Source: an uncultured virus (IMG/VR IMGVR_UViG_3300030061_000857) (taxonomy: Duplodnaviria > Heunggongvirae > Uroviricota > Caudoviricetes > Crassvirales). From it: DNA of 64,000 bases. Shown one piece after another: positions 2,576 through 43,223 of the stretch (position 1 is its first letter; each line of letters begins with the position of its first letter). The stretch is taken from the IMG/VR virus record IMGVR_UViG_3300030061_000857. One strand, given 5' to 3'. The position numbers were made by a program, and so were the translations under genes. Under the pieces are notes generated by a model. The model made no database searches. It saw only the letters and a list, made by a program, of their open reading frames with translations, and was not told the DNA's origin.

Positions 2576-2587
2576 AAATATAATACA

Positions 2588-4561
2588 ATGAAAGAAACTA
2601 TACTAAAAAGATTAAAAAAATATAACATGGGGGGAATGCCAACTATGCCTGTTCAACCAATGCCAGAAATGCTTGAGAACATGACAGGTCCTACCGGTCC
2701 TGCGTATCCTACTCTAGAACCTGGAGTTATAGCAGGAAATGCACCTAATCCTATAAGTTCTTTAATGAATTTAGGAAAAACTATTTATAATAACAGACAA
2801 ACTATTTCAAATATTTTTACACCAAAAAAAGGAGTGGATACAAGTATATTCGCAGGTAAACTGCAAATGGGAGGAGTAGAACCATTACCAGGAGGTGTGG
2901 TAGCACCTATACCAGGAAGTGATGCTGTAGAGTTTATGGGTAATAAACATAATGAGTCAGGTATGGGATCAGATAGCGGTATTATGGTAGATCAGCAAAC
3001 AGAAGTAGAGGATGGAGAAACTATGGACCAGGTTAGTATGAAACATGGTGGTAAACGTGATTATTTCTTTTCTTCTTATCTAAAGAAAGGAGGTAAGTCA
3101 TATGCTGATATGCATAAAAACATTTTAGCAATGGGCGGTAGTCAAGAAGATATAAATATGCTAGCTAGAATGCAAGAGAAAGCTGCAGGTAGAGATCCTA
3201 ATCAAGTAGCTAAACTAGGAGGTGTAGTACAGTATGATACAGGAGGTGTAAATATTAATTTAGATGCGATTATGGATCAGTATCCTACTTACAGTGAAGA
3301 GATATATAATCCAAATATCTTAACAGAACAATTACCACAGTATCAAAATCAAATGGAGTTAAGAGAACAAAGGAGACCTCCTATAGCAGAACAAAGAAGA
3401 AGAATGTTTAGAAACTTACAAACTTTTATTGATAGAGGACAAACTCTTTCACCAGAACAACAAGGACAATATAATGAATTATCTAGTGATCCTTTTGTTA
3501 CTTCTCCAGAGCTTGTAAAATTAGAGCCAATAACAATTGATGGATTACAACGTGATAATTATTTTCAAAGTTCAATAAAACCACCACCTCCACCAGTAAC
3601 AAGCGTAGAGATGCCTGAAACAGAAATAACTTTACCTAAAATGTCTGAAGAAGAAATAGCTTTAGCAAACAGTGATGCAGACACATATGATTCATACTTA
3701 GCTAGAATAGAAATGTCAGGAGAACTTCCAAATGATAGAATAGGATTATTTAAAAGAGGTATACTAAGTGAAGAGCAGTTTAATAAAAGAAAAGAAAGAG
3801 AACAAAACAGACTAGCTAGAAAATTAAATCCAGGTATGCCGCTTGAAGCTAAGATAGCAGCTGGAGTGCAATTGTTACCTGCTATAACTGCTGCATTTAC
3901 AAAACCAGAAGAACTAACACAGTATGATTATGAGCCAGGTTTTACATCTCCTATAATGGCTGACAGAGTTAAAGGTCAAAAATTTGATGCTCCTACACAA
4001 GATGCAGCTAGAGCGTCGTTAGCTCGTGCTTACCAAGGACAACAAGAAAACATTGATACAGCAGGATTAGGACCTGGAAGTCAAAGTAATAGACAAGCTT
4101 TATTTGCTAAGAAGATAGAAGGTTTAGACAAGATAGGAGCAAGAGAAGCTGCGGATAAACTAAAAGCAGAGACAATGACTAAACAAAGTCAGTTTAAAGC
4201 AGATGCAATGAATGCTGCAAATGAATTAAAAGCTGCAACTATAAATGCACAGATGATACAAAAAGAAGCAATGAGAAAACAAGCTGTGGATGCTGCTAAT
4301 ACACAAATGGCAAATCAAGCAGAAATTGATAAGATACAAAAAAGACTTAATATTGTTACTAATCTATCACAAAGTATTGCAGGAATAGGAGGAGATTTAA
4401 TGGCATATAAATCACAGGAAAGACTAGCAAAAGCTATGGGATCTGATGGTATATACCAGAGAGATATAATGTCTAGATATTTAAAGAGTCAAAATCCTAA
4501 CATGAGTGATGATGAAATTAATAAACTTACTTTAGAAACACTAAAAAAACTAGCAAGCTAA
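2588..4561 (+). CDS. Internal virion cargo protein
   Basis: GNKHNESG...EVEDGE segment, repeated xxxGG motifs, helical Ala/Gln-rich C-terminus, position between the tail stabiliser and the giant proteins. Confidence 0.6.
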   Translation: MKETILKRLKKYNMGGMPTMPVQPMPEMLENMTGPTGPAYPTLEPGVIAGNAPNPISSLMNLGKTIYNNRQTISNIFTPKKGVDTSIFAGKLQMGGVEPLPGGVVAPIPGSDAVEFMGNKHNESGMGSDSGIMVDQQTEVEDGETMDQVSMKHGGKRDYFFSSYLKKGGKSYADMHKNILAMGGSQEDINMLARMQEKAAGRDPNQVAKLGGVVQYDTGGVNINLDAIMDQYPTYSEEIYNPNILTEQLPQYQNQMELREQRRPPIAEQRRRMFRNLQTFIDRGQTLSPEQQGQYNELSSDPFVTSPELVKLEPITIDGLQRDNYFQSSIKPPPPPVTSVEMPETEITLPKMSEEEIALANSDADTYDSYLARIEMSGELPNDRIGLFKRGILSEEQFNKRKEREQNRLARKLNPGMPLEAKIAAGVQLLPAITAAFTKPEELTQYDYEPGFTSPIMADRVKGQKFDAPTQDAARASLARAYQGQQENIDTAGLGPGSQSNRQALFAKKIEGLDKIGAREAADKLKAETMTKQSQFKADAMNAANELKAATINAQMIQKEAMRKQAVDAANTQMANQAEIDKIQKRLNIVTNLSQSIAGIGGDLMAYKSQERLAKAMGSDGIYQRDIMSRYLKSQNPNMSDDEINKLTLETLKKLAS

Positions 4562-7131
4562 TGGCAAAATATCAACTACCACAATATCAATCAGTATACA
4601 GAGACACAGGATCTGTGCAGGTTAATCAGTTAAAGAGACAAATGTTTTTAGAGAACATGAAAGCAGATGATGCATTGTCAACTTCTGTTATGAACATGGA
4701 TGCTTTAGATAAAGACAAAGAACAAATGAATAGTCTTGCAGAAGTTTACAATAATAATATATCAGAGAGAGCAGCTAGAAAAGACTATGAAAACCTAGGA
4801 ATGACTATTCATACAGACGCTATGAACTTTATTAAAGACTATACTCCTATTAAAAAGAGTAAAGATTTATATACTGCATATGAAAAGATGTTATCAGAAA
4901 GAGTAGCTAAAGGTGATATAACTGATTCAATAAAACAAAGAAAGTTAGCGCAGTCTTTATCTAAATATAAAGGTATACAGAAAAGTGCAACAGGAGTTAT
5001 TGATGGAGACTCATATTTTAAAGGAGCAAATGTTACTGCATTTGTAGATGTTAATGCTGAGATTCAAAAAGCAATGAAAGATGTAATACCAAGAGAAAAA
5101 GGGATTAAAGGATTTGAATTAAGAGATGGTGATTTTGATGTATTCCTTTCTTCTAGAACTATGACTGGAGATCCAAAGGCAGATGGAGCTGTTTGGAAAA
5201 TTAAGCAAGGAGAAAAAATAGTAGAGGTACCAGACTATGTAGTAGAGAGTGTAACTAAGGATATTTTACGTAGACAAGATGTAGCAGGTTTTATAAATCA
5301 AGAAGCAGATCTTAATACTTATATGTTTAGTCAAGAAGAAGCTACAGAAAAAATAAATGAATCTATTGTAAAAATAGATGAGATGATTGCTAAAATACCT
5401 AGTTTAGAAAAACTTACGGCTGACGAGAAAAAAGAAGCAATTAAATCTCAAAAAGAACTAAAAGAAAGTATTTTAGAAAAACAAAAGACTATGAATAGTG
5501 TAGATCTTTTAAAATCTATGACTCGTAATGATTTAAACAATCAGTATATGAAGTCTGCTACAAATAAGTATGTATATAGCAATGTATTTGTTGACAAAGA
5601 TATTTCAGTAATAGATAAAGAGGGAGTTGGATCATCACAAAATAATGATCAAGTAATTCTATCAGGAGAAGTTAGTGATTCTTTAACTGCTGAAGTATTA
5701 GGAGGTAAGACTTTAAAATCTAAGAGAGCATTCCAGCTTGAATCTCAAAACTATTTAGATGAAAGAACTAGTCAGTTTGGAACTGAATTTAATAATGATA
5801 TGTTAAATGCTAATACAGAAGCAGATATAAATGCATTAGCTGCAAAGTATAATTTAGTTCCTCAAGATATATTAGCTCAATCTAAACAAGTTAAGAGACA
5901 TCAAGATAATGTAGATTTAATGGAGATTCAACTAGAGGATGCAATAAAAAACGCAACAGGAGGTCAAAGTAAAGAAGAATATGACGCAGAAGTTAGTGAT
6001 ACTTATGCTACTAAAACAAATCCAAGATATAAGCAAACAGAAAGATTCCCTACAGATGTTGATGGTAATATGTTGCTTAAGGCTTTACAACTTCCTATAC
6101 ATACAATAGGTATGGTGGCTGATTCAAATACTGGGGAAATAATAAATAGAGGTACTGACAATCAAGCTATTTTACCAGCTGATGCAACAGTTAAAGATGC
6201 AATGGATTGGTTAAGAGATAATGTTTCAGAACAAGATAACATGTCAACTAGTCAAGGTATACTAAAAGGACATCCAATGCAAAAAACTTTAATGCAAGCT
6301 TTAGTTCAAGCAAATGGAATAGAACTAAAAGGTGAAACAACTGTAGCTATTCGTTATAAAAACAATGCTTTATCTGCATTAGCAGATGATAACGGTATGG
6401 TTTCTAGCGAGTATTTATCTTTAGGTGAAAGTTATTTGAGGTTACTTGAAATGTACAATAAAGACCAAAATAAAACTGAAAAGAAAATAGAAGAGCATTT
6501 AAATACTCAACAAATTAAATTTGATAATACTATAGCTACAAGCTTTGGAGATAAGACTGAAGAAACTAGAAAAGAAATAAGAGAAACTATAGCTAAGGGT
6601 ATTCCTGGAGACTTTATAACTTATACTGATGGAAGTAATGAAGGTATAAAGTGGGATGATGCAATGAAAGCAGATTATGAAGGAAAAGACTTTGAAATAG
6701 TTCCAGAATTATCAGGATTATCAAACATATCTATGATGGATGGAACTCCTCTTATGGCTATAGCTGTTAAAAGTGAAGGTAAAATTAAAATGTACAATAT
6801 AAATGCTAAGCAGATTGGTATGCCTTCAGTAGATGAATATACTGCATCAACCGGTTATAAGGTACGAGCCGTATATGCTAGAGGTGAGTGGGCAAATGTA
6901 GATGAATGGTCTCCTAAACTATTTAGCTACGAAGAACAAATTGATCCAGAAGACGCGTCAAAAGGTACACAAGAAGTTCAAGGTGTAATGTTTAAATACA
7001 ATAGTGATCCAGAATTTCCTGTACACATAAGACAAAAAGATGGCACATATAAACGTATGAGTGAAAAAGCAGGATTAGAATACATTGAAAAATTTGTAGA
7101 AGAGAAAGGAATACAAAACTATATATATTAA
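4561..7131 (+). CDS. Internal virion protein, unknown function
   Basis: 856-aa ORF coupled by TAATG overlaps at both ends, no Cys, within the cargo operon. Confidence 0.55.
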   Translation: MAKYQLPQYQSVYRDTGSVQVNQLKRQMFLENMKADDALSTSVMNMDALDKDKEQMNSLAEVYNNNISERAARKDYENLGMTIHTDAMNFIKDYTPIKKSKDLYTAYEKMLSERVAKGDITDSIKQRKLAQSLSKYKGIQKSATGVIDGDSYFKGANVTAFVDVNAEIQKAMKDVIPREKGIKGFELRDGDFDVFLSSRTMTGDPKADGAVWKIKQGEKIVEVPDYVVESVTKDILRRQDVAGFINQEADLNTYMFSQEEATEKINESIVKIDEMIAKIPSLEKLTADEKKEAIKSQKELKESILEKQKTMNSVDLLKSMTRNDLNNQYMKSATNKYVYSNVFVDKDISVIDKEGVGSSQNNDQVILSGEVSDSLTAEVLGGKTLKSKRAFQLESQNYLDERTSQFGTEFNNDMLNANTEADINALAAKYNLVPQDILAQSKQVKRHQDNVDLMEIQLEDAIKNATGGQSKEEYDAEVSDTYATKTNPRYKQTERFPTDVDGNMLLKALQLPIHTIGMVADSNTGEIINRGTDNQAILPADATVKDAMDWLRDNVSEQDNMSTSQGILKGHPMQKTLMQALVQANGIELKGETTVAIRYKNNALSALADDNGMVSSEYLSLGESYLRLLEMYNKDQNKTEKKIEEHLNTQQIKFDNTIATSFGDKTEETRKEIRETIAKGIPGDFITYTDGSNEGIKWDDAMKADYEGKDFEIVPELSGLSNISMMDGTPLMAIAVKSEGKIKMYNINAKQIGMPSVDEYTASTGYKVRAVYARGEWANVDEWSPKLFSYEEQIDPEDASKGTQEVQGVMFKYNSDPEFPVHIRQKDGTYKRMSEKAGLEYIEKFVEEKGIQNYIY

Positions 7132-10100
7132 TGGGCATACCTATAACAATAAATAGCGGAACTAATTTACAAGAGCCTACATCTTCTAGTGGAGGTATAA
7201 ATTTATACTATGATCCAGACATAGCTAAAAAACCTTTAGACAGAATCTCTAGAATAGATCCGTATGATACTATAAACTTTACAAATATATACACAGATGA
7301 TTTGTCTAAGTATGAGAAATACGATGTACCTACAACTAGATTTTTTAATTGGGATGATCAAAGAGCAAAAAATCAAAGCACAGGAGAAAAGTGGTTAAAT
7401 GGTTTAAGTAAAGGATTAGTTACAACTGCAGGAGCTGTAGTAGAAAACACACTTGGTGTAATAGCAGGATTAGGTGAAATGGCATTTGGCTCTGGGTATT
7501 ACTATGATAATTTTATAGGGCAAAGTATAGACAAAGCTAATGATTGGATGCGTGATGCTATGCCTAATTATAGAACACAAGCAGAGATGGATATGACTAC
7601 AGGTCAAAAACTAGGTACTGCTAACTTTTGGGCAGATACAGTATTAAATGGTGTAGGATATAGTATAGGGTCTATTGCTACTATGTGGTTAACAGGAGGC
7701 ACAGGGCTTATCATGAGAACTGCAGGGGCAGTAGGCAAAGCACAAAGAGCTAAAAATATATATGATGTATCAAAAGCTATTACAACTGGTACAAAACTAG
7801 CAGACAAAACTTTTAAAGCTAGTAGAGCGCAAGGATTACTTAATTCTGCTAACATGTTAGAAATGGGATTATATATGTCATTAGCAGAAGCTTCAGTAGA
7901 AGCAAGAGAAGCACAAAAATCAGCGTATGATGCATTAATAGAAAAAGAATTAGAAGACAGAAATCTAGAAAGAGAGTTTGAATTAGGAGATGAAGTACGT
8001 GCTGATATATTAAATGCTTCTTATGCTGCAGGTAATGCAGATTTCCTAGCACAATTACCAGTATTAGCTGGTACAAACCTATTTATGTTTGGTAAACAAG
8101 TAGCAGGATTTAACACTGCAAGAAAACTAAGACCAGACGTAGCTTTTGATAATGCTACTAAAAAAGTTGTAAATACAATAGGAGAAAGAGGTCTTTTTAG
8201 AACAGGTTTGAGCAGATTAAAACCTTTTGCACAAGGATCTTTAACAGAAGCATTTCAAGAAGGATGGCAGTTTGCGTCTAAAACAGGAGCAATAGATTAT
8301 CATACAGATAAATATTTTAATGGAGGAGCTGCAGATATGAGTGAATCTATATTACATGGAATTAATGAAACGTTTGGAACACAAGAAGGTTTAGAGTCAA
8401 TGCTAGTTGGAGCAATTGTAGGGGGAGGTGTTTCTGGAGTACAGAGCGCTATACAAAAACCATATGCACAAAGACAAAAGAATGCTAAGTATTTAACTGA
8501 TTTACTAAATGGAGGGTTTTTAAGAAACGCTGCTAATAAAGGAATGACATCAAATGCTATGACACTTGCTTTAGTGCAAATGGAACAAGCAAGAGAAAGC
8601 GGTGATATAAAAGCTTTCAAAGATGCACAAAACAAACTTATAATGTACAATGCATTTGAAGCTTTACAAAATGGAGGCTTTGATGTATTTATGGAAAAGC
8701 TAGACGATGCTGCATCTTTAGAGGACTCAGAATTTGCAAAAGCTTTTGGGTATGATACTGAACAATCTATACAAAAACAAACAGGTAAATCAAAACAACA
8801 AATAATAGATAATGCTAAAAAGAAGTATCAAAGTTTTAAAGAAACATATGATAGTATAAACGAAGCTTATCCGCCAGCAGATAGAAAAACCGGTCTTCCT
8901 AGAATGAGAATGACAGAAGAAGAAAGAAAAGCTGAAGAAGCTGTTTATCAAGGAAGAGAAGCACTACGTGCACAGCTTATACTAGGTATGGGTAGCATAA
9001 AGAATAGAAACAGTAGATTAAAAAGCATACATGATAATATGCAAGCTTTGTTAGATAGCACAGTTAATCTAAATAATGGAAGTGTTCTAAAAGATATTTT
9101 AGCTTTACCACAATTTGGTGGAGAAAATATTTTAGAGTATAGTGCTGCAGAAGAGCAAGAAAATACTCGAAAAAGACTAAATGAAGTACTACAAGTTCTT
9201 GTAAAAAATAATGTAGACCCTGTAAAGATAGCAGACTTTAAAAAGCAAGCTCAAGATTATTTATCATTGCTAAGAGAAAATCAAGAAACTGTTGAAGCTC
9301 ATATAAAACTTAGCTCAGATACTTTTGCTCAAGAACAATTTAAAGATGAAGTAGCAAAGAATGTAGAAGCTGCAAAGAAAAAAGCAAAAGATTCTAAAGA
9401 TAAAAAGAATGTTGAGGAAGCTAAAACTAGTGAAGATATAAAAAATAATGTAAAAGATGCTGAAGGAGAAACAAAAGCAGATGCAGAGCAAAAGTTCCAA
9501 GATTTAAAACGTCAAGAAAAAGAAGCAGAAGATAAATACTTATCTAAAGATAAAGACTTACCTGCAAAAAATAGACTTAGATTACTTAAAGCAATAGACA
9601 CATCTAATCTTAGTGACACAGAAAGAGTGGGACTAGTCAACGCTATAGAAAAATTAGAAAAGTTAGAAAAACAACAAGCAGAAAAAGAAACACCTATAGG
9701 AGAAGATCCAGATGCTCAAACTATAGCTGACATATTAGAACAAGAAGAAACACAAGAAGAGGAAGAAGTGGATGCAGTACAGCAAGAACCTGAGCCTGCA
9801 AAAAGAGAAGTTGTAATTACAGATACTAGTCAACTAGAAATATTTGACGATGTTAGTGTGGAGAATGATAACAACGAAACTCCTGTGTTGGGGCTAGAAT
9901 TAGCAGTAGATCCTACTATATGGGTAAGTGATAAGAAGGTAGGTGTAAATGAAAACGGTGTGCCTGATGGTTCTACAGGAGATACTGTAAATGGTAAGCC
10001 TATAATTATTAGTCAAGAGCCTTTATTAGGAGAGACAGAAGGAACCGAGGTAGAGTTTGTAATAATAGAAAATGATTTCTTTGTAGAAAATCATAAAGGT

Positions 10101-11642
10101 AAACCAACAGAAATTGAACAAACGCCTATTTATGTAAAGATAGGAGATACAATAGTAGGTAAACTACAAGCTAATAAGAGTGATGAGAGAAAGGCACTAG
10201 TACAAAAAATAAGAGAGACTGAAGGACAAGTAGAGATTGAACGTATACAAAACGAGGAATTACGGGGAATGACAGATAGGTATAATAGTGAAACAGAAAG
10301 TAAAGGATCTCCTTTCTATGGAAAAGAAAAGGTTACTTACGAAGAAATGGAAAAATTATATGCAGATGTTCTTGATAGAATTAGAAAAAAAGCTAATGCT
10401 AATAAAATACTTCGTAGTAAAGGTAGAAAGACAATAACAGCTCAAGAAGTAATAGATGATATAGTGCAAAACTATATTAATAATACTCCTTTACAATCTA
10501 TGCCTATAGGAAATCCTGGATTATTCTTACTAAAAGAATATATTAGAGAACAAATTGACGGAACAGCATTATTAGGAAAAAAAGTAACTACAAAAATATC
10601 AAAAGTAGTTGCTAATAATTATAATAATGCTGTGCTTTCAGAAGCATCAAACACTAGTTACTTTTTTAATATAAAAGATGTAATAGGTAATGGTAAGACT
10701 GAGAATGTATTATTAGCATTTACTGCAGGTACTCCTGGAGAAACAGATGTTGTACAATGGGAAGTATCACCTGTTAGTGATGAAAAGAATCAATCAGATT
10801 TACCTAAGATACAAAGAGAAGCGCAACGTGAACAAGCAGAAGGAAGAATAGATCAAGTAGCTGTAGTTGTAAGACCGGAGAATGTGCCTGGAGGAAAAGC
10901 AAGAATATATATAACAAGTACAGCTAACTTATCTGAAGACGCACAACAAAAAGTAATTGATTTAGTATTAGAAAAAAACTATGATGCAGCTAAAGAAATT
11001 GTAGCAGCTAGTCAACAAAGAAGAGGTAATGATAATCCTAGCTTTTTAGAGTTTAACACTTTTGAAAATGGCGATAAATACATAGTATACTACAGTCCTA
11101 AACTTAGAAAGCTTATACGTATTAATGAAACAGAAATGACAAAAGCTCTAAGTAATCCTGAGAATAAAGCTTTCTTTGATATTGTTAGTATACAAGATGA
11201 GATGTATACAAATAAAGGTAAAAGAAATACTACAGATTTAAAATTTAACTTAGGAGAAGATTTTAATTTGTTTTTAAGTAATAAAAAATATCATGTAGAT
11301 AAACAACTTGCTAATAGTACAGAAGAATACTTTAGTCCTGTAGATCCTCAAAGAAGATATGATAACTACCAAGAGTATTTATTTAGTCCTGCAGAGGTTG
11401 GAGACAGGGTAGAAGGTACGGGACATTATTCTATACTTAGTATTGACGCTGTTAAGATAGGTGAAAGTTTATTTAACAATCCTAAAGTTACATTTGAAAG
11501 AGGTAATGTAATAGGAGAAACAAAACAAGAAGTTGTAGATAAAACAGATTTAACATCTATGAAAAAACAAGTAGAAGTAAGTGCTGTAGACAAAGCTCCA
11601 AAAGGTTTTAAAGATAAATTTAACAAAAAGAATTGTAAATAA
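7131..11642 (+). CDS. Giant internal virion/ejection protein 1
   Basis: 1503 aa. N-terminal Gly/Ala-rich hydrophobic helices (EAFQEGWQF; MLVGAIVGGGVSG) like phage ejection proteins, followed by coiled coil. Directly upstream of the RNAP. Confidence 0.65.
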   Translation: MGIPITINSGTNLQEPTSSSGGINLYYDPDIAKKPLDRISRIDPYDTINFTNIYTDDLSKYEKYDVPTTRFFNWDDQRAKNQSTGEKWLNGLSKGLVTTAGAVVENTLGVIAGLGEMAFGSGYYYDNFIGQSIDKANDWMRDAMPNYRTQAEMDMTTGQKLGTANFWADTVLNGVGYSIGSIATMWLTGGTGLIMRTAGAVGKAQRAKNIYDVSKAITTGTKLADKTFKASRAQGLLNSANMLEMGLYMSLAEASVEAREAQKSAYDALIEKELEDRNLEREFELGDEVRADILNASYAAGNADFLAQLPVLAGTNLFMFGKQVAGFNTARKLRPDVAFDNATKKVVNTIGERGLFRTGLSRLKPFAQGSLTEAFQEGWQFASKTGAIDYHTDKYFNGGAADMSESILHGINETFGTQEGLESMLVGAIVGGGVSGVQSAIQKPYAQRQKNAKYLTDLLNGGFLRNAANKGMTSNAMTLALVQMEQARESGDIKAFKDAQNKLIMYNAFEALQNGGFDVFMEKLDDAASLEDSEFAKAFGYDTEQSIQKQTGKSKQQIIDNAKKKYQSFKETYDSINEAYPPADRKTGLPRMRMTEEERKAEEAVYQGREALRAQLILGMGSIKNRNSRLKSIHDNMQALLDSTVNLNNGSVLKDILALPQFGGENILEYSAAEEQENTRKRLNEVLQVLVKNNVDPVKIADFKKQAQDYLSLLRENQETVEAHIKLSSDTFAQEQFKDEVAKNVEAAKKKAKDSKDKKNVEEAKTSEDIKNNVKDAEGETKADAEQKFQDLKRQEKEAEDKYLSKDKDLPAKNRLRLLKAIDTSNLSDTERVGLVNAIEKLEKLEKQQAEKETPIGEDPDAQTIADILEQEETQEEEEVDAVQQEPEPAKREVVITDTSQLEIFDDVSVENDNNETPVLGLELAVDPTIWVSDKKVGVNENGVPDGSTGDTVNGKPIIISQEPLLGETEGTEVEFVIIENDFFVENHKGKPTEIEQTPIYVKIGDTIVGKLQANKSDERKALVQKIRETEGQVEIERIQNEELRGMTDRYNSETESKGSPFYGKEKVTYEEMEKLYADVLDRIRKKANANKILRSKGRKTITAQEVIDDIVQNYINNTPLQSMPIGNPGLFLLKEYIREQIDGTALLGKKVTTKISKVVANNYNNAVLSEASNTSYFFNIKDVIGNGKTENVLLAFTAGTPGETDVVQWEVSPVSDEKNQSDLPKIQREAQREQAEGRIDQVAVVVRPENVPGGKARIYITSTANLSEDAQQKVIDLVLEKNYDAAKEIVAASQQRRGNDNPSFLEFNTFENGDKYIVYYSPKLRKLIRINETEMTKALSNPENKAFFDIVSIQDEMYTNKGKRNTTDLKFNLGEDFNLFLSNKKYHVDKQLANSTEEYFSPVDPQRRYDNYQEYLFSPAEVGDRVEGTGHYSILSIDAVKIGESLFNNPKVTFERGNVIGETKQEVVDKTDLTSMKKQVEVSAVDKAPKGFKDKFNKKNCK

Positions 11643-14600
11643 TGAGTTGTAGAATAGAAAATGGTAGAGCCATATTACCTAATGGTAAAGATTCAAAACT
11701 TTTAAAAGGCCTAAGAGACGCTGTAGGTTCTAGAGCGCAAGCAGATGCTATATATGAAAGTGTGTATGGAGAAGAGTTTAAAAAATTCTATGGGTTTGAT
11801 TTTGAAAAAGAAGGCATAACACAAGTAGAAAGATTTGCTAATAACCTAGATGAAAACAATGAGCCTAGACTGTTTGCTGGTATAGGTATATATGAGTTTA
11901 TAAATAACAAATTAAAAAGTTTTCCTGTTGCTCTATCAGATAAACAACAAAACAAAATACTAGATTTAAATAGAACAGAGGCAGAAAATGCAGAGATACA
12001 ATCAGAACTTATAAATACTCTTATAGGATTTACAAACAACTTAAAAATAAAAGCAGGTGTTGATAATGCTGATATTATATTTAATACACTAAAAGATAAA
12101 ACTTTATTAGCAGCATTTAACAATACTATAGATATTGAAAAAGCTAAAGAGTTATTTAGAACTCTTAACATGGGTGAGAATGGTTATGATAACTTTGTAA
12201 AAAAGATAGAAGAAGAAAACATAAGTTTAGCACCTATGTTTGATGTGTTTATTAGTGCTTATGATCAATGGGAATCTACACAAGATGCGCTAGGTAATAT
12301 ACAAACTATAGGCGTTAGAGATATACTAAAAGACAGCTTCTCTAGATATAACATGAGGCTAAGAGACGGCTATTCTTTACTAGAGGAGATAGATGATGAG
12401 TATATAAGAATATATAATAACTCTAGGCTAGAAGACAATCCGCAAAATAAACTATCATCAAAAGCAAAAGCTATTATAAGTAACATTGTAGTAGGTGAAA
12501 ATAGTTTAGGGTATCCTGAAACATTGCCTACAGATAGAGTCTATGCTATTATAGCAGAAGCAGCTGTAGGTCAACCAGACTTTGATGCAATGATTTCTAA
12601 ACTAGATTATTACTCAGAGTATAAACCTGAAGTAAAAGAGATTGTAAATAAATTACTAGCATTAAAGCCTGGAGAGAAAGCAGCTATCTTCTCTGCTTTT
12701 AAAAATACATATAAAAAGTTTTTACTATTTAAACAAGAAGCAACTGATGGTGGATTTAGAAATGTAATTATAAATTCTAATCAAAGCAATGTAGCTATAA
12801 AAACTAGAAGAGACTTTAGAGATAATGCTGTACAATACACAATTGAGAATCCTAGAGCTGTGTATATATCAGATAAAGATAAAATATCTGTAAAACCTGA
12901 AAAAGTAAAACGTATTAGAAAAGCATGGGATATTGTAAAAAAAGCGCAAGGGCAAGCAGAATGGACTGATCAACAATTAGATGCTTTAGGTGTATATCTA
13001 TGGGAACTAGGTATGAATTATGGTCCTACACTAGAAAGCACACAAGAAAACATAAAAAAGTACTATACAAAGGGTAATGAATCTAGAATAAAAGAAGGAG
13101 ATTTATTATCAAGGTTTGTATTTGAGCCTAATAAGAACTTTGAAAAACTAATACTAAGTTTAGAAAATAACCCTAGTGATAATTTTCATGACGCAGAAGG
13201 AAGTATAGTACAAAAGATTGCAGACATTGCTATACTATTTGATAGTAAGCCTTTTGGAACTTTTATTAGCGGTACAAATAAACAGTACTATCCTGTAAAT
13301 TTACCAACAGCACTAGATGAACTAACAGAACTATTTAATGACCCTAATCAAGTCTTTGAATTAAAACAGTTTGTAAAAAGCTTAGGAGAAGATCCGTTGT
13401 TTAACCCTGGACAAACTAAATACAAGTCTATATTGTTAAGAGCACTTACTAGTAGTAAAGGTAATGCAAGAGAAAACTTTATAGCATACATATTAGATTC
13501 TTATAAATCTGCTACCCAAGATGCTGTAGATTACAATTCTCAAAACGATAAGACATCTCTAAAAGAAAGATTAATAGGTTATATAAACAGAGATAGTAAG
13601 TACTCTTTATCTGCAATACATATTCAAGCAGATCGTAGACAAATGGGATTTGTGCAAGTGCCTAAAATGTCTGAACTGTCTTCTTTTGGTATTACATTAA
13701 GTAGACAAGAAATAATAGAAGGGTTAATAATACAAGACTTATCTAGAATAAATCAAGCAAGAAAACTTATAAGAAGTAAAGATGAGTCTAAGTTTATAGA
13801 AGGCTATCATTACAAGCCAGGGTCTAGTAAATATGCAATGGACGGATCAGTATTTACAATGACACAAATCTATGGACTTGAAGATACAGATTTAGGAGGA
13901 GAGTATATGTCTGATTTAGTAGAAGACTTTGTAGCAGGAGTACCAAATGATTTATTTACTAAACTATTAGGAGAAAAAGTATCACAAGTAGAACAAATGC
14001 TAGAAAAGTTTGAAGAAGAATTACAAACTGAGTTAGTACAGTTTGATATAAAATTAATTAAAGATGTAAGTTCTAATTTAGATACTGATGCTAAAAAATT
14101 AAAGTTTGTTAAAGACTTTGTTTTTAATGAATTTGTAAATAGAATAGAAGTTACAAAGCTATTACGTAGTGGATACTCTTTTGCAAAGGACTCTGCAGAT
14201 TTTTACAAACGTATGGGACTTGTAAATACACCTGGAACTAAATTAGCTATACAAGGATTTGATCAAAACGATACGCAATATGGTATGATGCCACAGTATA
14301 ATGGATTAGTAATAAAAGATTTTGATTATTCCGATAAAGATAGATCAGACCAAGTTGTAAAAAATCTAATAGCTAACGGACTAGATCCAAAAATAGCTGG
14401 TTTATATTTAACTACAAACAAATCAGATGCACAATCTTTTATTAGTGTAGATATGTACCGCGGGATCATGCAAGGTATGGGTAACTGGACACAAGAAGAT
14501 GAAAATGCATATAAAGTATATTTACAAGGAGGTGGTTATAATAGACCGGTTGTTCCTCTAAAGCCATATCATGAACAAACAAATGTAAAGAATGGACTTA

Positions 14601-17600
14601 GTACTATGCATATGGACAAGAACTCCTATACTGTAGTTACACCAGAGCTAGCTGCAGACTTTCCGTATTTACAAAACATGCTTGATGCAATGCGTAATGA
14701 CAATATACATGTAGTGCACACAGAAAGCGCAACAAAAGGAGCTAGGTCTAATGTGCAAGACTTTCAAGCTACAGGTGTTCTTGATGTTAGTAATCCTACA
14801 GTATATGATTCTACTAAACTTAGGTTTCCACAGATGATACCTGTAGATGAAAAAAATACTATAACATTTAATAGACAACTTAGAAAGAACATAACTACAA
14901 ATGTTATAAGAGACGGTCAGTATACTATTGATGGTAAAACAATGTCTGGCGCTGAGGTACAAAAACTACATGATGAATCTATAGCAGGAAATATAAAACA
15001 AGACACAGAAAGAATAGAAAAAGAGTTAGGAATAACTAAAGTAAACAGAATAAAAAATAAAGAATCTGTAGAACATAAAGAAGCTAAGTTAGCGCATTTA
15101 AAAGCTCTTAGATCTAGAATAGAAAAAGAAATTGCTGAGAGAGACCTACCGCAAAACTATTTAGATGGATTAGATATTATACCTAATGGTCCATTTGATT
15201 ACAAATTTAGAGTACCACTAAGTTTCCCAAACTTTGCAGCTAGATTTGAAACAATTGTAGCAGGTATATTTAACAAAGAAATATATAAACAAAAACTAAA
15301 AGGACAAGAAGCGGTACAGATAGCAGAACTAGGAGGCCATAGTGTTAGTGGAGAGTTAAGAATGTATGATGGACAAAATGGAGGAGCAGAAGTTAGAATA
15401 AAAGCTAGTACTCTTGGATTTACAGCAGAAGAAATAGAAGGTAAAACCGCTGCAGACTTTGCAGGAGATCCTAGATTAGAGTTTATAGGTTATCGTATAC
15501 CGCAACAAGGTAAGAGTTCTTCTATGGTGTTTAGAGTTGTTGACTTTTTACCTGAGTCTCATGAAAAAGCTATTATGGTTCCTGGGGCTCTAACAATACA
15601 ACAAGGTAGTGACTTTGATATAGATAAGTTAAATCTTATATTCAAAGAAGTAGGTGAACTTAATGAAAGACAAAAAAGAAATAATAATATATATGAAGTA
15701 TATAAAGGAATTATACTAGATCCAAAACACTTGACAGAAGTTATGACCCCTGTTGCTAACGAAGAGTTAAAAGACTTAGCTAGAATTGTTGGTGATGTAG
15801 ATGCTAGTGTAAATTATAACAACCCGCTGACTGAACTTAAGATGGAAAATAGACAGAAGATGGGTATAGCTGGTAGAGGATTGCATTCTAATATTATTAA
15901 AGGTAGAAACACAGCAGAAAAACTAGGAATTTTATCAGTAAGATCTGACTTTGCTCCTGTTATAGAAGGAAATCCTATGATGTTTATACAAACAAATGAT
16001 TTAAAAGGTAACTTTACAGACGCTAATATATCACAATACCTATCAGCTGCAGTAGATGCGGCAAAAGCTCCTATACAAATAGATATAAACGATAATAAAT
16101 ACACTATACCTGTAACCGGTCTTTTATTAAGTGTAGGTGTTCCAATAGAAACCGTGGTATACTTTTTATCACAGCCTAGTATTAAACAGTTAATAAAAGA
16201 AGCAGAGCTAAATGATGTAGGAGAAAATAAATTAGTAGAAAAAATTGATACAAAAGAAGGTGTAAAAAATATGACTCTTGCACAATTAAAAGAGGGATCT
16301 ATACCACAAGAAGAGATACTAAGAAACTTTGCTATATTCCATAGAGCTGGTAAACAAATGCAAAGAGTATATAAGATAATTACTCCAGGTGATATAGATA
16401 ATGTAAATGAATTATCTGCTATAAATGCATGGATAGATGAAGAAACTTTCTTTTTATATAATCAAGACAGTGTAATACTAGGGGCTAAAGATTATATAAC
16501 ACATCAGCAAGGTAGTAATAAACCTTTAAATGCAATGGGCATCGCTTATAGAGGAGTACTAGATACTATAATAGATAATACTAATCAGTTAGGATTTTTA
16601 CAGAACACTAATGCATTTAAACAAGCAAAAGAAAACTTAAAAACATCTTTAGGTATAAATATTCTTACTGCTGCACAACATAAATTTATCGATAGAGCAT
16701 TATATGGGGCGTTAATGACACAGCCTAATAGTCCTTTAATGATAAATATAGGAGATAATGTAGGATTACTATCTAGAAGAGTAATTAGTGCTTTATACAA
16801 CCCTCAAAGCAAAGATAATATAGTAGTTAAAACTAGAGAGATAGCTCTTAAACATCCTAAATTAAATGACAATCCATTCTATAGACTATTAAGAGAAGAT
16901 CCTAGTAACAAAGAAACCGGTATAGCTAGAATACAATTTGATACTGGTATAAATTTATCTGTAGCAGATAAGAATGATTTAAGTAATGCTTTGTTACGTA
17001 TAATAAAAGACCCAAACCCAGAGATAAGATCTTATGGTAAACTTTTAGTAGCAAATCAATTTTTAACTAGCGGATTCTTTCCTACATATGGTAGTTATAT
17101 AGACTTAATACCAACAGAAGTTCTTACAACAGACCTAATAAACCCAGGTAATGGAAGTCCTGTAGAGTTTTTTGAGCAAGAAATAACACAACTAGTTGCT
17201 CCTGATTACTTAGGTTTTAGTAACTTTACACACGAGTTTGTAAGAAACTATGGTACAAGAAGACCTGGCGGACAAAATTTATTAAGAGTTGTAAAAGTGC
17301 CTGTAAAAAATCTAGACTATGGGCAAATTACTTTTTCTGATTTTGACTCACAAGTATACGATGAACAAAATGGATATGTACAGTACTTTAAGTCTAGAGC
17401 AGGTACAATGTATGTGTACATAGGAGGATCTACTTACCAACAACTAGAAGCATTAGGTGTAGAAAATAAAGTTGCAGAAATAGGAACTTCTAATTTAGTA
17501 ACAGATAGTGTGTTTCAGCAAAATAGAAGCAAAGTTAAAACAACAGATAAACCTGTAGATGGATATATACAAATGACTCCAGATGTAATAAAAGAAGATA

Positions 17601-17635
17601 ACGAAAATGATGACCCAATAAAAGTTTGTAAATAA
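11642..17635 (+). CDS. Virion-packaged two-barrel RNA polymerase (phi14:2 gp66-like)
   Basis: 1997 aa with GYRIPQQG and the catalytic DxDxD loop QQGSDFDIDKL (~15599-15630), plus SAAVDAAK. Size and context match crAss-like vRNAP. Confidence 0.9.
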   Translation: MSCRIENGRAILPNGKDSKLLKGLRDAVGSRAQADAIYESVYGEEFKKFYGFDFEKEGITQVERFANNLDENNEPRLFAGIGIYEFINNKLKSFPVALSDKQQNKILDLNRTEAENAEIQSELINTLIGFTNNLKIKAGVDNADIIFNTLKDKTLLAAFNNTIDIEKAKELFRTLNMGENGYDNFVKKIEEENISLAPMFDVFISAYDQWESTQDALGNIQTIGVRDILKDSFSRYNMRLRDGYSLLEEIDDEYIRIYNNSRLEDNPQNKLSSKAKAIISNIVVGENSLGYPETLPTDRVYAIIAEAAVGQPDFDAMISKLDYYSEYKPEVKEIVNKLLALKPGEKAAIFSAFKNTYKKFLLFKQEATDGGFRNVIINSNQSNVAIKTRRDFRDNAVQYTIENPRAVYISDKDKISVKPEKVKRIRKAWDIVKKAQGQAEWTDQQLDALGVYLWELGMNYGPTLESTQENIKKYYTKGNESRIKEGDLLSRFVFEPNKNFEKLILSLENNPSDNFHDAEGSIVQKIADIAILFDSKPFGTFISGTNKQYYPVNLPTALDELTELFNDPNQVFELKQFVKSLGEDPLFNPGQTKYKSILLRALTSSKGNARENFIAYILDSYKSATQDAVDYNSQNDKTSLKERLIGYINRDSKYSLSAIHIQADRRQMGFVQVPKMSELSSFGITLSRQEIIEGLIIQDLSRINQARKLIRSKDESKFIEGYHYKPGSSKYAMDGSVFTMTQIYGLEDTDLGGEYMSDLVEDFVAGVPNDLFTKLLGEKVSQVEQMLEKFEEELQTELVQFDIKLIKDVSSNLDTDAKKLKFVKDFVFNEFVNRIEVTKLLRSGYSFAKDSADFYKRMGLVNTPGTKLAIQGFDQNDTQYGMMPQYNGLVIKDFDYSDKDRSDQVVKNLIANGLDPKIAGLYLTTNKSDAQSFISVDMYRGIMQGMGNWTQEDENAYKVYLQGGGYNRPVVPLKPYHEQTNVKNGLSTMHMDKNSYTVVTPELAADFPYLQNMLDAMRNDNIHVVHTESATKGARSNVQDFQATGVLDVSNPTVYDSTKLRFPQMIPVDEKNTITFNRQLRKNITTNVIRDGQYTIDGKTMSGAEVQKLHDESIAGNIKQDTERIEKELGITKVNRIKNKESVEHKEAKLAHLKALRSRIEKEIAERDLPQNYLDGLDIIPNGPFDYKFRVPLSFPNFAARFETIVAGIFNKEIYKQKLKGQEAVQIAELGGHSVSGELRMYDGQNGGAEVRIKASTLGFTAEEIEGKTAADFAGDPRLEFIGYRIPQQGKSSSMVFRVVDFLPESHEKAIMVPGALTIQQGSDFDIDKLNLIFKEVGELNERQKRNNNIYEVYKGIILDPKHLTEVMTPVANEELKDLARIVGDVDASVNYNNPLTELKMENRQKMGIAGRGLHSNIIKGRNTAEKLGILSVRSDFAPVIEGNPMMFIQTNDLKGNFTDANISQYLSAAVDAAKAPIQIDINDNKYTIPVTGLLLSVGVPIETVVYFLSQPSIKQLIKEAELNDVGENKLVEKIDTKEGVKNMTLAQLKEGSIPQEEILRNFAIFHRAGKQMQRVYKIITPGDIDNVNELSAINAWIDEETFFLYNQDSVILGAKDYITHQQGSNKPLNAMGIAYRGVLDTIIDNTNQLGFLQNTNAFKQAKENLKTSLGINILTAAQHKFIDRALYGALMTQPNSPLMINIGDNVGLLSRRVISALYNPQSKDNIVVKTREIALKHPKLNDNPFYRLLREDPSNKETGIARIQFDTGINLSVADKNDLSNALLRIIKDPNPEIRSYGKLLVANQFLTSGFFPTYGSYIDLIPTEVLTTDLINPGNGSPVEFFEQEITQLVAPDYLGFSNFTHEFVRNYGTRRPGGQNLLRVVKVPVKNLDYGQITFSDFDSQVYDEQNGYVQYFKSRAGTMYVYIGGSTYQQLEALGVENKVAEIGTSNLVTDSVFQQNRSKVKTTDKPVDGYIQMTPDVIKEDNENDDPIKVCK

Positions 17636-20600
17636 ATGGCGTGTAAATATTATGATAAAAAAACCGGATTAGTAAATGAGTTACTTACTGATCTATATGG
17701 TTATATGGATACAGTACAAAACAAAAATGTAGACTCTGTATATAAAATATTAAAAAAACATCGTATAGCTACAAAACGTAATGACATTATGTATTTAACA
17801 TTACCTAATGTTAATTATAGCCTAAGAGAGTTTAAAAGAATAGAAAGAAAACATCCAGGACTTTTTTCTACTGAGTATATAAAAATGACTCCTAGAAGCA
17901 TATATTCTGAAGCTGCTCCCCTATACTCACTAACTATAAATAAAAATGTTTTAGAAAACATAAATCCTGAAGGTACAGCTAATGCAGATATTAGCACAAC
18001 AGACCCGGTTGACATAGATCAATATGTTAGATTTATTGCAGGTGCTGAAAGAAATACAAGAGATTATTATCTAGATGAAATAGCTAGAAGAGAAAATACT
18101 AGTAATAGTAAGTTTTCTGCTATGGAAAAAGAGGATATGGAGAATGTATATAGAGTTAGTAATGAACTTAAAAACTCTTTTGCAAAAGCTGGAGTAACTG
18201 TAGATGTTATATTTGATACTAGCATAGATAATATAGGACAGGTAGATCCTGCAGAGCTTGGTATGAATCCTACAATAAGGATAAATCCTCTAAAGGTTAG
18301 AAAAGATACAACATATCATGAGTTTGGGCATATATACATAGACTTATTAGGTGTAAATCATCCTATTGTTGCACAAGCTATAGCAGAACTAAGAGATACA
18401 GATTTATACTATCAGGTAAAAGAAGCCTATCCAGAATTATATGGTGAGTTATTAGATAAAGAAGTACTAGCTACAGCAATTGGATTAGAAGGAGCAAAAA
18501 TAGTTAGAAAAAATCCAAACAAATTACAAAGAATACTTAATAGATTGTTTAGAGCTATTGGCAAATTGTTTGGCATAACTCCAAATACTGCAGCAAGACT
18601 TGCAGAAGAAATGTTTGCAGGTAAATTAAGGAGAGATAGCATGATCAATCCTCTAAGCTCTTATATACAGGCAAGTAAAGAAGAAGTTAAATTAAAAGAA
18701 CTTGTAGATGAAGCAAGAGTTAGAATAAACTCTGAGATATATGAGCTAAATCAATTGCCAGAAGACCAGGTAAGTCCAGAAGAAAAAACTACTTTATTAA
18801 GATTAGAAAATAGTTTACAAAGAGTAAGAAAAGTAGAAGACTTATTTAAACTTGTAGATGCTATGGGTGGTGCATTAGCTAGAGCTAAAAGTAATTATAG
18901 AAATATAATGGAACTACCAGAAGCAGAAAGAGGGACTACAGCTAACTTAAATAAAATGTGGGCTCTAAAAAAGACACTAGATGGATTAGAAATGTTTTCT
19001 AGTATTAAAAGCTTATTGTTAGCTACTAAAGATAAAGGTAAAATACAAGACTTAGATGCATTTGATAAATTAGAAGATAGAGTAAATGAAATTATAGATC
19101 AAGCTACAGTGCTAGATAATGATTTTAAAGATGATATTATACCAGTATGGGCACAATCTGTAATAGGTTTATCTAATAAAAATTTACCAGCTGAAATACA
19201 AAAACTTATAGATAATATAGAGAAGAATAAAAGACTAGTAGGCCCTGATACAACAGACATTGCATGGGTACAACTTACTGAAAGATATAATAAAGGTCAA
19301 ATTACAAAAGAAGAGTTAACAGAAAAGAGACTTAAATTAAATGTAGAACAGTTAAAACAAAAGCAATTACTAAATTATGGTGATCTTGTAAAAGAACTAA
19401 CAACTGCACATAAAGATAAAAGTGGTTATTCTTTTTACTTTGACCCTATTGTTTATTCTAGTGATAGAGGTATACAACTATTAGTTAAAGCAGTACAACA
19501 AGCTAATTTAGAAAAGAATGACCTAACACTAGATCTTAAGTCTAAGCTAGCACCTGTCTATGATGAGTTTGCAGCTGGTCAAAGTGAATCTAATGTAGAA
19601 AAATTAAATGATGACTTATTAGAAGAGGTAACTATAAACGGTGTAAAAAGATTAGCGCTTGTTAATCCAATTGACCAAGAGAGGTACTATGGTGATCTTA
19701 GAGATTATAAAAAACAACTAGACGAAAAGTATAGTAAACCTAAGCCAGCTGATTTTAATGATGACATGGAATTATATAAAATAGAATATGGTAAATGGAT
19801 AGAAAGCAGTAAAGGTAGAAACTATCAAAGAGACATAGTTACATGGAATAATGAGAATAGTACTCCTATAGAAGGATGGGAAAAAGAATTAAAAAGAGTA
19901 AGAGATGAATTAAAGGTACAGCAGTCAATACTTAAACAACTTAAAGCAAATGGTTTTGAAAATACAGACTCATATCTAAACGCACAAATAAATAGAGACC
20001 AGCTAAATAAATTTTTAAATAAAAATTATATAAACGGTAAACCTGCAGGTGATTGGGTGCAACCAGACCCTAAAGTATATACTAATGCTAAGTATACAGC
20101 TATACAAAATGATCCTAGATTAAAAAAATACTATGATTTTGTATTACAAGAGTTTCAAACAGCACAAAGAATGATAGGTGTAAATCGTATGGATAAAAAT
20201 ACATGGGATAAATACTCATATTTAATGCCAACTTACAGAAAAGAAGACTATGACAGAGCAAAAGAAAATGGTACTTATAACACTATAAAGGATATGCTGC
20301 AAGACGGGTTTACTATACAAGAAACTAATCATGATTATTATACCTATAATCAAAACAACAAAGACATAGAAAAAAGAGTCCCTGTTTACGCTACCAACAG
20401 GGTTCCTGCTAGAGAAGTCTCAAAGGATATAGCTAGTAGTTTATATAGATTTAGACACATGGCACATAACTTTAAAACTAAAAGTGAAATATTAGGACAA
20501 GTTATGATATTTCAAGAAATATTAAAGAATGCAAAAACTTTAGAGACCAACTCAGCAGGTATACAGCTAATACAAAAAGCTGCAGAAAGTATGGGTATAA

Positions 20601-22024
20601 ATATGCCTAAACTAAAAGAAGGTGAAACCTATAACTTTAGACATGTAAACGAATGGATAGACTCTGTAATGTTTGGACAGTCTAATTTACAAAAAGACTT
20701 TACAGTATTTGGTAAAACATTTTCTGCTAATGAAGCAGTAGGGACAATAAATGCATTTACAGCAATGAGCACGTTATCGTTTAACTTACTACAAGGGGCT
20801 AACCAGTCTATATTAGATAATATGATGATGCTACAAGAATCATTTGCTGGACAGTTTTTAAGTAAATCTGATATGGCATGGGCAAAAGGAAAGTACTGGG
20901 GATCCGGTATGGCTATAACAGATATAGGTAGATTTGACCCAAAGAGTAAAATAGCAAAGGCAGTAGAGTATTTTGATGCGCTTACAGAATTTACAGATAC
21001 AGAAGGAAATCAAATAGTAGGAGGTAAAAGAAGAAAAGCAGCAAGAACCGGTAATCTATTGTTTTTACAACAAGCAGCTGAACACGAACTATCCGCTACT
21101 AGAATGCTAGGACTAATGAAAAACCTTGAAGGCACACTAAAAGACAGTGATGGTAATGTAATACTAAATGAAGAGGGTAAACCAGCTAACTTATATGATT
21201 TACTAATAGTAGATGAAAAAACCGGTAAGATGTCAATAGATCCTAGACTCGATGAGAAGCAGTCAGGATTTAATAGGTTAGATTTTATAACAAAATTACA
21301 AGGATTAAGTAGAAGGACTAACCAGATAAAAGGTAAGATGCATACTAATATGCTACAAAGAAGATGGTGGGGTAAACTGTTTATGTTATTCCGTAATTGG
21401 ATGCCGCCTGGAATTAGAAGAAGATATGGACACGGTGGTGGATCTACAGTGCATGTAGATGAAGAGTTAGGTGCTGTTACACAAGGTATGTATGTATCGT
21501 TTTGGAATTTTGTTGCAGAAAGTATATCAACTAAATCTTTTGCATATACTAATATGACTGAAATGGAACAACAAAATGTTAAAAGAACATCTGTAGAACT
21601 AGCATCTTTAATGGGAGCTATGGCATTAGTAGCAGCGTTATCTAATTTAGATGATGAAGAAGAGTCATGGGTAAGTAACTTTGCTTTATATCAAGCTAAA
21701 CGATACCAAACAGAGATCCTACAATGGACACCGCTAGTAGGTGGAAAAGAAGCATTTAGAATACTACAGTCTCCTACAGCAACAGCTAGACCAATACTAA
21801 AAGGTGGTGAGTTGTTAGGACAAATGATAAGCGAAGTTAGATATGTATTAGGAGACCCATTCATTGATGACTCTGCTATTTTTTATCAAAGAAGAACAGG
21901 TAGATTCCAAAAGGGAGACCGTAAAATAAGAAAAGATTTCGAAGATTTATTACCAATATTTAGAGGCTTACAAAAATCAAGAACACCCGAAGAAGCTTAT
22001 AAATGGTTCACTACCTTAGAGTAA
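17636..22024 (+). CDS. Giant internal virion protein with zincin-like metalloprotease domain
   Basis: HEFGH (HExxH) at ~18317-18331 with a downstream Glu helix (KEVLATAIG). Hydrophobic C-terminal helices; follows the RNAP gene. Confidence 0.75.
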   Translation: MACKYYDKKTGLVNELLTDLYGYMDTVQNKNVDSVYKILKKHRIATKRNDIMYLTLPNVNYSLREFKRIERKHPGLFSTEYIKMTPRSIYSEAAPLYSLTINKNVLENINPEGTANADISTTDPVDIDQYVRFIAGAERNTRDYYLDEIARRENTSNSKFSAMEKEDMENVYRVSNELKNSFAKAGVTVDVIFDTSIDNIGQVDPAELGMNPTIRINPLKVRKDTTYHEFGHIYIDLLGVNHPIVAQAIAELRDTDLYYQVKEAYPELYGELLDKEVLATAIGLEGAKIVRKNPNKLQRILNRLFRAIGKLFGITPNTAARLAEEMFAGKLRRDSMINPLSSYIQASKEEVKLKELVDEARVRINSEIYELNQLPEDQVSPEEKTTLLRLENSLQRVRKVEDLFKLVDAMGGALARAKSNYRNIMELPEAERGTTANLNKMWALKKTLDGLEMFSSIKSLLLATKDKGKIQDLDAFDKLEDRVNEIIDQATVLDNDFKDDIIPVWAQSVIGLSNKNLPAEIQKLIDNIEKNKRLVGPDTTDIAWVQLTERYNKGQITKEELTEKRLKLNVEQLKQKQLLNYGDLVKELTTAHKDKSGYSFYFDPIVYSSDRGIQLLVKAVQQANLEKNDLTLDLKSKLAPVYDEFAAGQSESNVEKLNDDLLEEVTINGVKRLALVNPIDQERYYGDLRDYKKQLDEKYSKPKPADFNDDMELYKIEYGKWIESSKGRNYQRDIVTWNNENSTPIEGWEKELKRVRDELKVQQSILKQLKANGFENTDSYLNAQINRDQLNKFLNKNYINGKPAGDWVQPDPKVYTNAKYTAIQNDPRLKKYYDFVLQEFQTAQRMIGVNRMDKNTWDKYSYLMPTYRKEDYDRAKENGTYNTIKDMLQDGFTIQETNHDYYTYNQNNKDIEKRVPVYATNRVPAREVSKDIASSLYRFRHMAHNFKTKSEILGQVMIFQEILKNAKTLETNSAGIQLIQKAAESMGINMPKLKEGETYNFRHVNEWIDSVMFGQSNLQKDFTVFGKTFSANEAVGTINAFTAMSTLSFNLLQGANQSILDNMMMLQESFAGQFLSKSDMAWAKGKYWGSGMAITDIGRFDPKSKIAKAVEYFDALTEFTDTEGNQIVGGKRRKAARTGNLLFLQQAAEHELSATRMLGLMKNLEGTLKDSDGNVILNEEGKPANLYDLLIVDEKTGKMSIDPRLDEKQSGFNRLDFITKLQGLSRRTNQIKGKMHTNMLQRRWWGKLFMLFRNWMPPGIRRRYGHGGGSTVHVDEELGAVTQGMYVSFWNFVAESISTKSFAYTNMTEMEQQNVKRTSVELASLMGAMALVAALSNLDDEEESWVSNFALYQAKRYQTEILQWTPLVGGKEAFRILQSPTATARPILKGGELLGQMISEVRYVLGDPFIDDSAIFYQRRTGRFQKGDRKIRKDFEDLLPIFRGLQKSRTPEEAYKWFTTLE

Positions 22025-22563
22025 TATTAATATTTGTATTTATATTAGCTTGTAGTAAAGAGGTTGATGATTTAGGATTTAGAACGTATGTTATACCAGC
22101 TGGTGAACATAGTTCTGGTAATTTTATTAATCATCCCGATAACTCCAGGCTAGTATTTGATTTTATATTAGACGAGTCAGCAAAATACTATACAGAAGTA
22201 CCGGAAAACCAACACGATGTAAACAAGATCTATGGTATGAGTGACTTTGGTAAGTTACATCAAAAATATTCCATACGTCTTGGATGGCGCTACTTAGATG
22301 GAAATATAGAATTATGTTGGTTACGTCATGAACAAGGCAGGCATAGCTCTGCTACAATAAAGGTTATAGAACCCAACGTAATTTATAATGCTGTAATAGA
22401 TATTACAACATTTTACTATGTTATAGTTATAGATGGTGATACTACAATGGTTAGACGTAGACCAGAAGGTTATTGGGGACTAGTTAGAAGGTATTATTTA
22501 TACCCATACTTTGGCGGTAATGAATATGCACCACATGACATAACTATTAAAATAAAAGAATAA
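22003..22563 (+). CDS. Putative lipoprotein, beta-rich
   Basis: N-terminal R-VILIFVFILA-C-SKE resembles a signal peptidase II lipobox. Last gene of the + operon. Confidence 0.55.
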   Translation: MVHYLRVILIFVFILACSKEVDDLGFRTYVIPAGEHSSGNFINHPDNSRLVFDFILDESAKYYTEVPENQHDVNKIYGMSDFGKLHQKYSIRLGWRYLDGNIELCWLRHEQGRHSSATIKVIEPNVIYNAVIDITTFYYVIVIDGDTTMVRRRPEGYWGLVRRYYLYPYFGGNEYAPHDITIKIKE

Positions 22564-42953: not shown

Positions 42954-43223
42954 ATGAAATTTAAACCAAGTGGAAGCTGGATAGTCCTTCCGGACCCAGT
43001 AATTACAGAAACAGAATCAGGAATAATATTAGATGAAGCTACGGCTATGGAGAACTCTAAACGATCAAACGTTTTGGAGGCGATAGCTGTTGGGCCTCAT
43101 TGTAACTTTGTAGAAAAAGGTGACACTGTAATGGTAGATCCTAGATCAGAGGCTGCAAGAACAGAAATAGATGGTAAATTATACCTAATTATTTCAGAAC
43201 ATCAAATATTAGGCAAGTGGTAA
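42954..43223 (+). CDS. groES: Co-chaperonin GroES/Cpn10
   Basis: MKFKP, TESGIIL mobile loop, AIAVGP, VEKGDTV, YLIISEHQILG. Confidence 0.85.
   Translation: MKFKPSGSWIVLPDPVITETESGIILDEATAMENSKRSNVLEAIAVGPHCNFVEKGDTVMVDPRSEAARTEIDGKLYLIISEHQILGKW

Follow-up and report, generated by a model that had tools for sequence, protein, structure and literature searches.

The closest described precedent for the system analyzed here comes from the cyanopodophage A4 (A-4L), in which cryo-electron microscopy (cryo-EM) placed a C-terminal helix of gp27 in a cleft of gp26, with a disulfide between Cys1715 and Cys5 (PMC12002296; for this and the other papers cited, statements refer to the available portions of the text). 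The authors consider that the gp27-gp26 disulfide stabilizes the pre-ejectosome and may join a chain reaction. In N4-like phages, ejected proteins exclude cysteine (Cys), a property ascribed to passage through the periplasm (PMC11445570). In the crassvirus crAss001, gp47, gp49, and gp50 were detected in virions by mass spectrometry, the cargo has to unfold partly to get through the tail, and the order of the injected proteins is put down to packing and mutual contacts (PMC10172136). This protein trio is fused into one polyprotein in some phages (bioRxiv 2020.03.07.982082), and how it relates to the three-part N4 polymerase has been raised as a question (PMC13434306). Here, we describe Cys residues at the facing ends of the corresponding three proteins, designated A, R, and T, in a 64,000-nucleotide stretch of DNA from an uncultured member of the Crassvirales (IMG/VR record IMGVR_UViG_3300030061_000857; the whole stretch is called the window) and in its relatives.

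The features on which the argument depends are as follows.

7131..11642, plus strand: protein A, 1503 amino acids (aa), counterpart of crAss001 gp47 and phi14:2 g067, head of the proposed chain
11634..11636, plus strand: Cys1502 of A, proposed donor end of junction 1
11642..17635, plus strand: protein R, predicted virion RNA polymerase, 1997 aa, counterpart of phi14:2 gp66 and crAss001 gp50
11642..11900, plus strand: N-terminal Cys3 of R (11648-11650) and the small domain behind it (boundary approximate), putative acceptor for the A end
17627..17629, plus strand: Cys1996 of R, proposed donor end of junction 2
17636..22024, plus strand: protein T, 1462 aa, counterpart of phi14:2 g065 and crAss001 gp49, tail of the proposed chain
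17636..18160, plus strand: N-terminal Cys3 of T (17642-17644) and a domain of about 120-175 aa, putative acceptor for the R end

Together, the three proteins contain 4 Cys in 4962 aa, each at a junction-facing end. Residue 1502, at the C-terminus, is the single Cys of A; R has only Cys3 and Cys1996; and T has only Cys3. An initial annotation of the window had reported this arrangement, and our count bears it out. The other open reading frames (ORFs) of the window included in the count have 178 Cys among 12,335 aa (1.44%), a frequency at which about 72 would be expected in 4962 aa. Four randomly placed Cys would fall one in each junction-facing stretch of 10 residues with a chance of 4e-10.

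The window phage fits Crassvirales, with Pfam matches to Crass_capsid (E 9e-82), ring 3/4 (E 7e-9), and muzzle (PF25731, window 223-1512, E 9e-7), and with portal and terminase recognized by PHROG. R has both a DFDxD motif (residue 1324) and homology to gp66; its sole match in the PDB is the phi14:2 gp66 structure (6VR4, E 4.5e-32), and tblastn matched it to 118 phage records. Its polymerase core is only about 26% identical to those of phi14:2 and crAss001. The text of PMC10172136, in its available portions, describes the crystallized polymerase as a homologue of gp49; our tblastn search places the polymerase core in gp50. A matches PHROG 32390 (E 2e-16), an unnamed family and the only one in PHROG matched by the trio, and has mildly hydrophobic stretches around residues 96 and 423. 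In T, which matched phi14:2 g065 and crAss001 gp49, there is a zincin-type HExxH motif at position 228, with Glu residues some 45 positions further on; zincin-like metallopeptidases of polyvalent proteins have an HExxH helix and a downstream Glu. A Pfam search gave no match for A, R, or T; in the PDB, neither A nor residues 1-1200 of T had a match. Presence in the virion and activity have been shown for the phi14:2 and crAss001 homologues of R, and by analogy with their homologues the three window proteins are likely packed in the virion.

To survey relatives, we pooled loci from six related-locus scans and 18 named records. Four scans contributed the best 80 of 513-533 confirmed stretches each and the genome scan the best 80 of 83, so the sample is biased towards the queries used. 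An ORF of at least 300 aa was present in 420 loci (window included), and the polymerase core was matched in 419 of these, which formed 234 clusters at 70% identity; one representative of each was analyzed. Proteins were labeled with profiles built from the first 750 aa of A, the R core, and the last 650 aa of T, i.e., with the junction ends excluded, and a terminal Cys was scored when it lay within 10 residues of a protein end. Kept outside the totals were 17 long R ORFs without an A match (start Cys in 0/17), 23 A-position ORFs chosen by a low-Cys filter (21/23 with Cys), 23 R ends at loci without T (14/23 with Cys), 8 R starts without the N-terminal part, and 4 truncated R ends.

Among the 234 dereplicated relatives, junction-facing ends carry a terminal Cys in 411 of 426 cases and outer ends in 1 of 270; internal Cys alone would account for 0.8% per stretch of 10 residues. 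Facing terminal Cys are a real, order-wide feature. The residue is found at the R start in 77/84 (82/84 if a later Met is allowed), at the end of R with a separate T in 146/147, at the T start in 144/147, and at the end of a separate A in 44/48 within the last 10 residues and 48/48 within 32. At outer ends, the counts are 0/37 for the A start, 0/59 for the start of A+R fusions, 0/42 for the end of R+T fusions, and 1/132 for the T end, the one case adjoining a run of N.

An earlier in-frame ATG accompanies the start in six of the 15 misses, and in four others, all of them A ends, Cys lies 12-32 residues in. One corresponds to an assembly gap and one to a frameshift (loci L370 and L408 of our survey), and the expected Cys was found in the DNA of both. 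In L384, a single TAG separates A from R, which may be an A-R fusion read under another genetic code. One locus (L393:14805-19788) has T in three ORFs, the first with Cys at both ends and the second Cys-led. In three further loci (L006, L026, and L117), R ends at 1782 aa and a 630-base gap precedes T; R is probably frameshifted there, and its near-end Cys may be due to chance.

The facing residues occur as pairs. Of the 147 R|T junctions, 143 have both Cys and none lacks both; of the 48 A|R junctions, 40 have both within 10 residues and all 48 when wider windows are allowed. The initial annotation had proposed testing whether terminal Cys co-occur in orthologues and disappear upon gene fusion, and both are the case: all 17 A-R-T fusions (14 of them complete) lack any Cys. 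Since A+R fusions have no N-terminal Cys (0/59) and R+T fusions no C-terminal Cys (0/42), the pairing is A end with R start and R end with T start. In the Carjivirus communis genome, in which R and T are fused, Cys is found at the A end and at the start of the fusion, and none at its C-terminal end. The phi14:2 trio has precisely the four Cys of the window, and the crAss001 trio has these four and one internal Cys. The A gene of crAss001 is located on the opposite strand, after T, and still keeps its C-terminal Cys. The suggestion of the initial annotation that the chain follows gene order therefore fails in this phage, in which the chain would still be A-R-T.

Fusion and splitting were frequent. 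The tree comprised 158 polymerase cores, of which 67 were A+R|T, 55 were A|R|T, 18 were A|R+T, and 18 were fused (long ORFs without an A match being scored as fused). By parsimony, junction 1 requires 17 fusion or fission changes and junction 2 requires 14; with nodes below 0.95 collapsed, the minimum is 13 and 8, respectively. With midpoint rooting, the tree does not fix the direction of individual changes. In five related loci, R is split within the polymerase core, with Cys on both new ends together with a known N-terminal module. A ferritin-like gene occupies the gap of the core split (L083:9334-9807, L203:11014-11490, L216, L229, and L321:5439-5915), and it is Pfam PF00210 in all three cases tested. 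In Leptolyngbya phage Lbo-JY46 (PP438436, L422:5552-18458), A adjoins T with facing Cys and no polymerase match between them. This phage is listed with a cyanobacterial host and carries crass-type cargo. Phage csAssE-Sib (OR575929, L423:1-4828) has a large Cys-ended ORF and a later 752-aa ORF with Cys near both ends, which suggests a chain of more pieces dispersed among inserted genes.

The 70 residues behind the N-terminal Cys fall into families common to R and T. The largest of these, with 33 R and 69 T members, contains the window R N-terminus; the family of the window T N-terminus has T members only. An R start matches a T start in 36 of 82 cases, and 55 of 232 sequences are singletons. 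Profiles of five families match inside just 1 of 124 fused proteins. When window T is aligned with six fused relatives, the alignment begins at T residue 161-178, and window R aligns with fused relatives mostly from near residue 200. In one fused protein (L296), the R and T matches are only 25 residues apart. At the C-terminal ends, an acidic stretch is followed by a Lys-rich Cys end, with little else conserved.

Given the facing Cys, which pair across junctions, are lost upon fusion, and are found at new splits, and given the N-terminal domains common to R and T, we consider an end-to-end link of some kind between A, R, and T very likely, and a disulfide the likely form of this link. A somewhat more specific reading, which we favor as probable, is that a C-terminal peptide and an N-terminal domain form a connector, locked by a disulfide, that takes the place of a peptide bond in a chain A-R-T. 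During capsid assembly, still in the reducing cytoplasm, the C-terminal peptide of A or R would dock on the small domain at the start of the following protein, and the Cys pair would be oxidized after lysis. The trio would then be packed and injected as if it were one polypeptide, with the link outlasting unfolding through the tail and the crossing of the envelope; with no other Cys in the trio, wrong pairings would be avoided during passage. It is also probable, to a similar degree, that the link serves in ejection as well as in packing. The existence of fused versions indicates that the working unit is one chain, and the retention of one Cys pair per junction despite Cys exclusion suggests that the pair is under selection. 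The link could be reduced in the host cytoplasm, but this step is not needed, and the existence of full fusions shows that not every lineage depends on redox release. The connector would be portable and could be placed at any break, the polymerase core included, with a chain of about 5000 residues leaving the capsid in fixed order. That such a two-part device, a Cys-ended peptide and a Cys-led domain, is used by crassviruses and by some other podophages to build a polyprotein after translation is, in our estimate, an evenly balanced proposition. The view of the initial annotation, that terminal Cys join separately encoded proteins into an ordered chain, is partly supported by these results.

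Several observations weigh against the disulfide-locked connector. No disulfide of this kind has been observed in any crassvirus, and gp47, gp49, and gp50 are unresolved in the crAss001 map (PMC10172136). Terminal Cys are kept in phages of gut anaerobes, in which an oxidant is not obvious, and no thiol-oxidoreductase was found among the 50 window proteins scanned against Pfam. They are also kept in 18 of 18 pairs with internal Cys above 2 per 1000. The C-terminal peptides share little sequence, and how the two junctions would be told apart is unexplained. One locus without terminal Cys (L387) is the sole unexplained miss, and in three others, which belong to the rows kept outside the totals (L181, L217, and L232), the last Cys of R lies 130-398 residues before its end. 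In these three loci, R is followed by an inserted gene (525-697 aa) whose start is EGGE-like, and an insertion at the junction is possible. Finally, the A4 proteins gp26 and gp27 matched no A, R, or T profile (nothing below E 0.5 with the junction ends excluded, in a sequence-only comparison), which makes the A4 precedent an analogy.

Among the alternatives, the one that survives best, although we regard it as unlikely, is a disulfide that acts as a latch for packing only and holds neighbors in a pre-ejection assembly from which the proteins do not exit as a single chain. The stabilizing role given to the A4 disulfide by its authors (PMC12002296) agrees with it, and a missing partner could just go unpacked. 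A latch, however, need not be placed at extreme termini, whereas the Cys are always terminal and in fusion order. A non-covalent contact would suffice for packing, and a covalent one would matter once the proteins unfold.

Less probable still is a metal ion such as zinc shared by the two Cys, with another copy of the junction supplying further ligands. Such a site would work without oxygen and during cytoplasmic assembly, it would suit the terminal Cys kept in gut phages, and several copies of each protein may be packed. Yet neither a His nor a second Cys is conserved near the C-terminal Cys or in the five module families (where the top His column reaches 11-33%), and the sole solved case, A4, is a disulfide (PMC12002296). 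The initial annotation had left the choice between a disulfide and a shared metal site open; the A4 precedent favors the former and disfavors the latter.

We consider true ligation through Cys, by thioester transfer or trans-splicing to a peptide bond, improbable. Split and fused states do interchange in evolution, and T has a zincin-type motif. The ligation chemistry of inteins needs a free N-terminal Cys. Here, the N-terminal Cys is found at positions 2-7 and the C-terminal Cys 1-10 or more residues from the end, a placement too loose for this chemistry, and no catalytic residues are conserved nearby. The idea that the Cys result incidentally from stop-start overlap DNA used in translational coupling, or from weak selection acting on protein termini, is already refuted by the counts: the same DNA, noted in the initial annotation, is indeed present at both window junctions, which abut or overlap, but it is incidental, occurring at only 4 of 146 R-to-T junctions (TGC is used in 25), junction gaps range from -41 to more than 60 bases, inverted A genes keep Cys without a coupled neighbor, outer ends have Cys in 1/270, and two overlapping junctions upstream in the window carry none.

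Further arrangements were set aside. A single four-Cys metal site per chain is excluded by two-protein layouts that keep only two terminal Cys. Self-closing of R combined with A-T pairing is disfavored, as fusions remove Cys in A-R and R-T pairs. Lipid modification of lipoprotein Cys requires a preceding signal peptide, and none precedes the N-terminal Cys of these proteins.

Other parts of the window were also characterized.

1514..7131, plus strand: three Cys-free ORFs (353, 657, and 856 aa) that lie between the muzzle gene and A

The initial annotation had described these three proteins as Cys-free, and they hold 0 Cys. By their position and by comparison with PMC10172136, they are likely further cargo outside the Cys chain. 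A 186-aa ORF (22003-22563, plus strand) overlaps the T end and has a hydrophobic N-terminus followed by Cys17, resembling a lipoprotein signal. The window also encodes a radical SAM protein (25883-26746, minus strand; spore photoproduct lyase match, PF20903, E 9e-29), a 913-aa protein with a weak HSP90-type ATPase match (26734-29475, minus strand), and, on the plus strand, Cpn10-like (42954-43223), HU-like (44150-44371), and SET-domain (47093-47428) proteins.

In the literature searched, which left subscription journals mostly outside its scope, we found no description of terminal Cys in crassvirus cargo. The available portions of bioRxiv 2020.03.07.982082, PMC7886860, PMC10136315, PMC5512222, and PMC13434306 contain no Cys or disulfide terms. 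Inter-subunit disulfides other than those proposed here are present in crAss001 particles, and the disulfide passages available in PMC10172136 are about the tail and gp57. A link through terminal Cys would give a concrete answer to how crassviruses pack and order injected proteins and would explain the frequent fusion and splitting of these genes. It would also suggest that studies of isolated gp66 miss its partners. In other phages, linked ejection proteins may be recognizable from sequence by the simple criterion of facing terminal Cys.

With regard to known systems, the window trio can be compared with three. The N4 and DEV virion RNA polymerases (Schitoviridae) are ejected and consist of an N-terminal domain, the polymerase, and a C-terminal domain; like the crass A-R-T fusions, they are Cys-free single chains (PMC11445570, PMC13434306). 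The N4 enzyme, however, is one polypeptide with a T7-type polymerase, whereas the window has another polymerase fold and three genes whose products are proposed to be Cys-linked. R is not an N4-type, T7-like single chain, given the three ORFs and 6VR4 as the only PDB match, and the window trio is N4-like in layout only. A4 resembles the window in having sole Cys that face each other: residue 1715 is the only Cys of Anabaena phage A-4L gp27 (1717 aa), residue 5 is the only Cys of gp26 (1114 aa), and the genes are 5 bases apart. In A4 the disulfide lies inside the capsid. A4 has one junction, and the available text treats it as a single stabilizing bond and not as a conserved connector that alternates with fusion (PMC12002296). 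The trios of phi14:2 (g067-g066-g065) and crAss001 (gp47, gp50, and gp49) are homologous to that of the window and carry the four terminal Cys; they are virion-packed, as is likely for the window trio.

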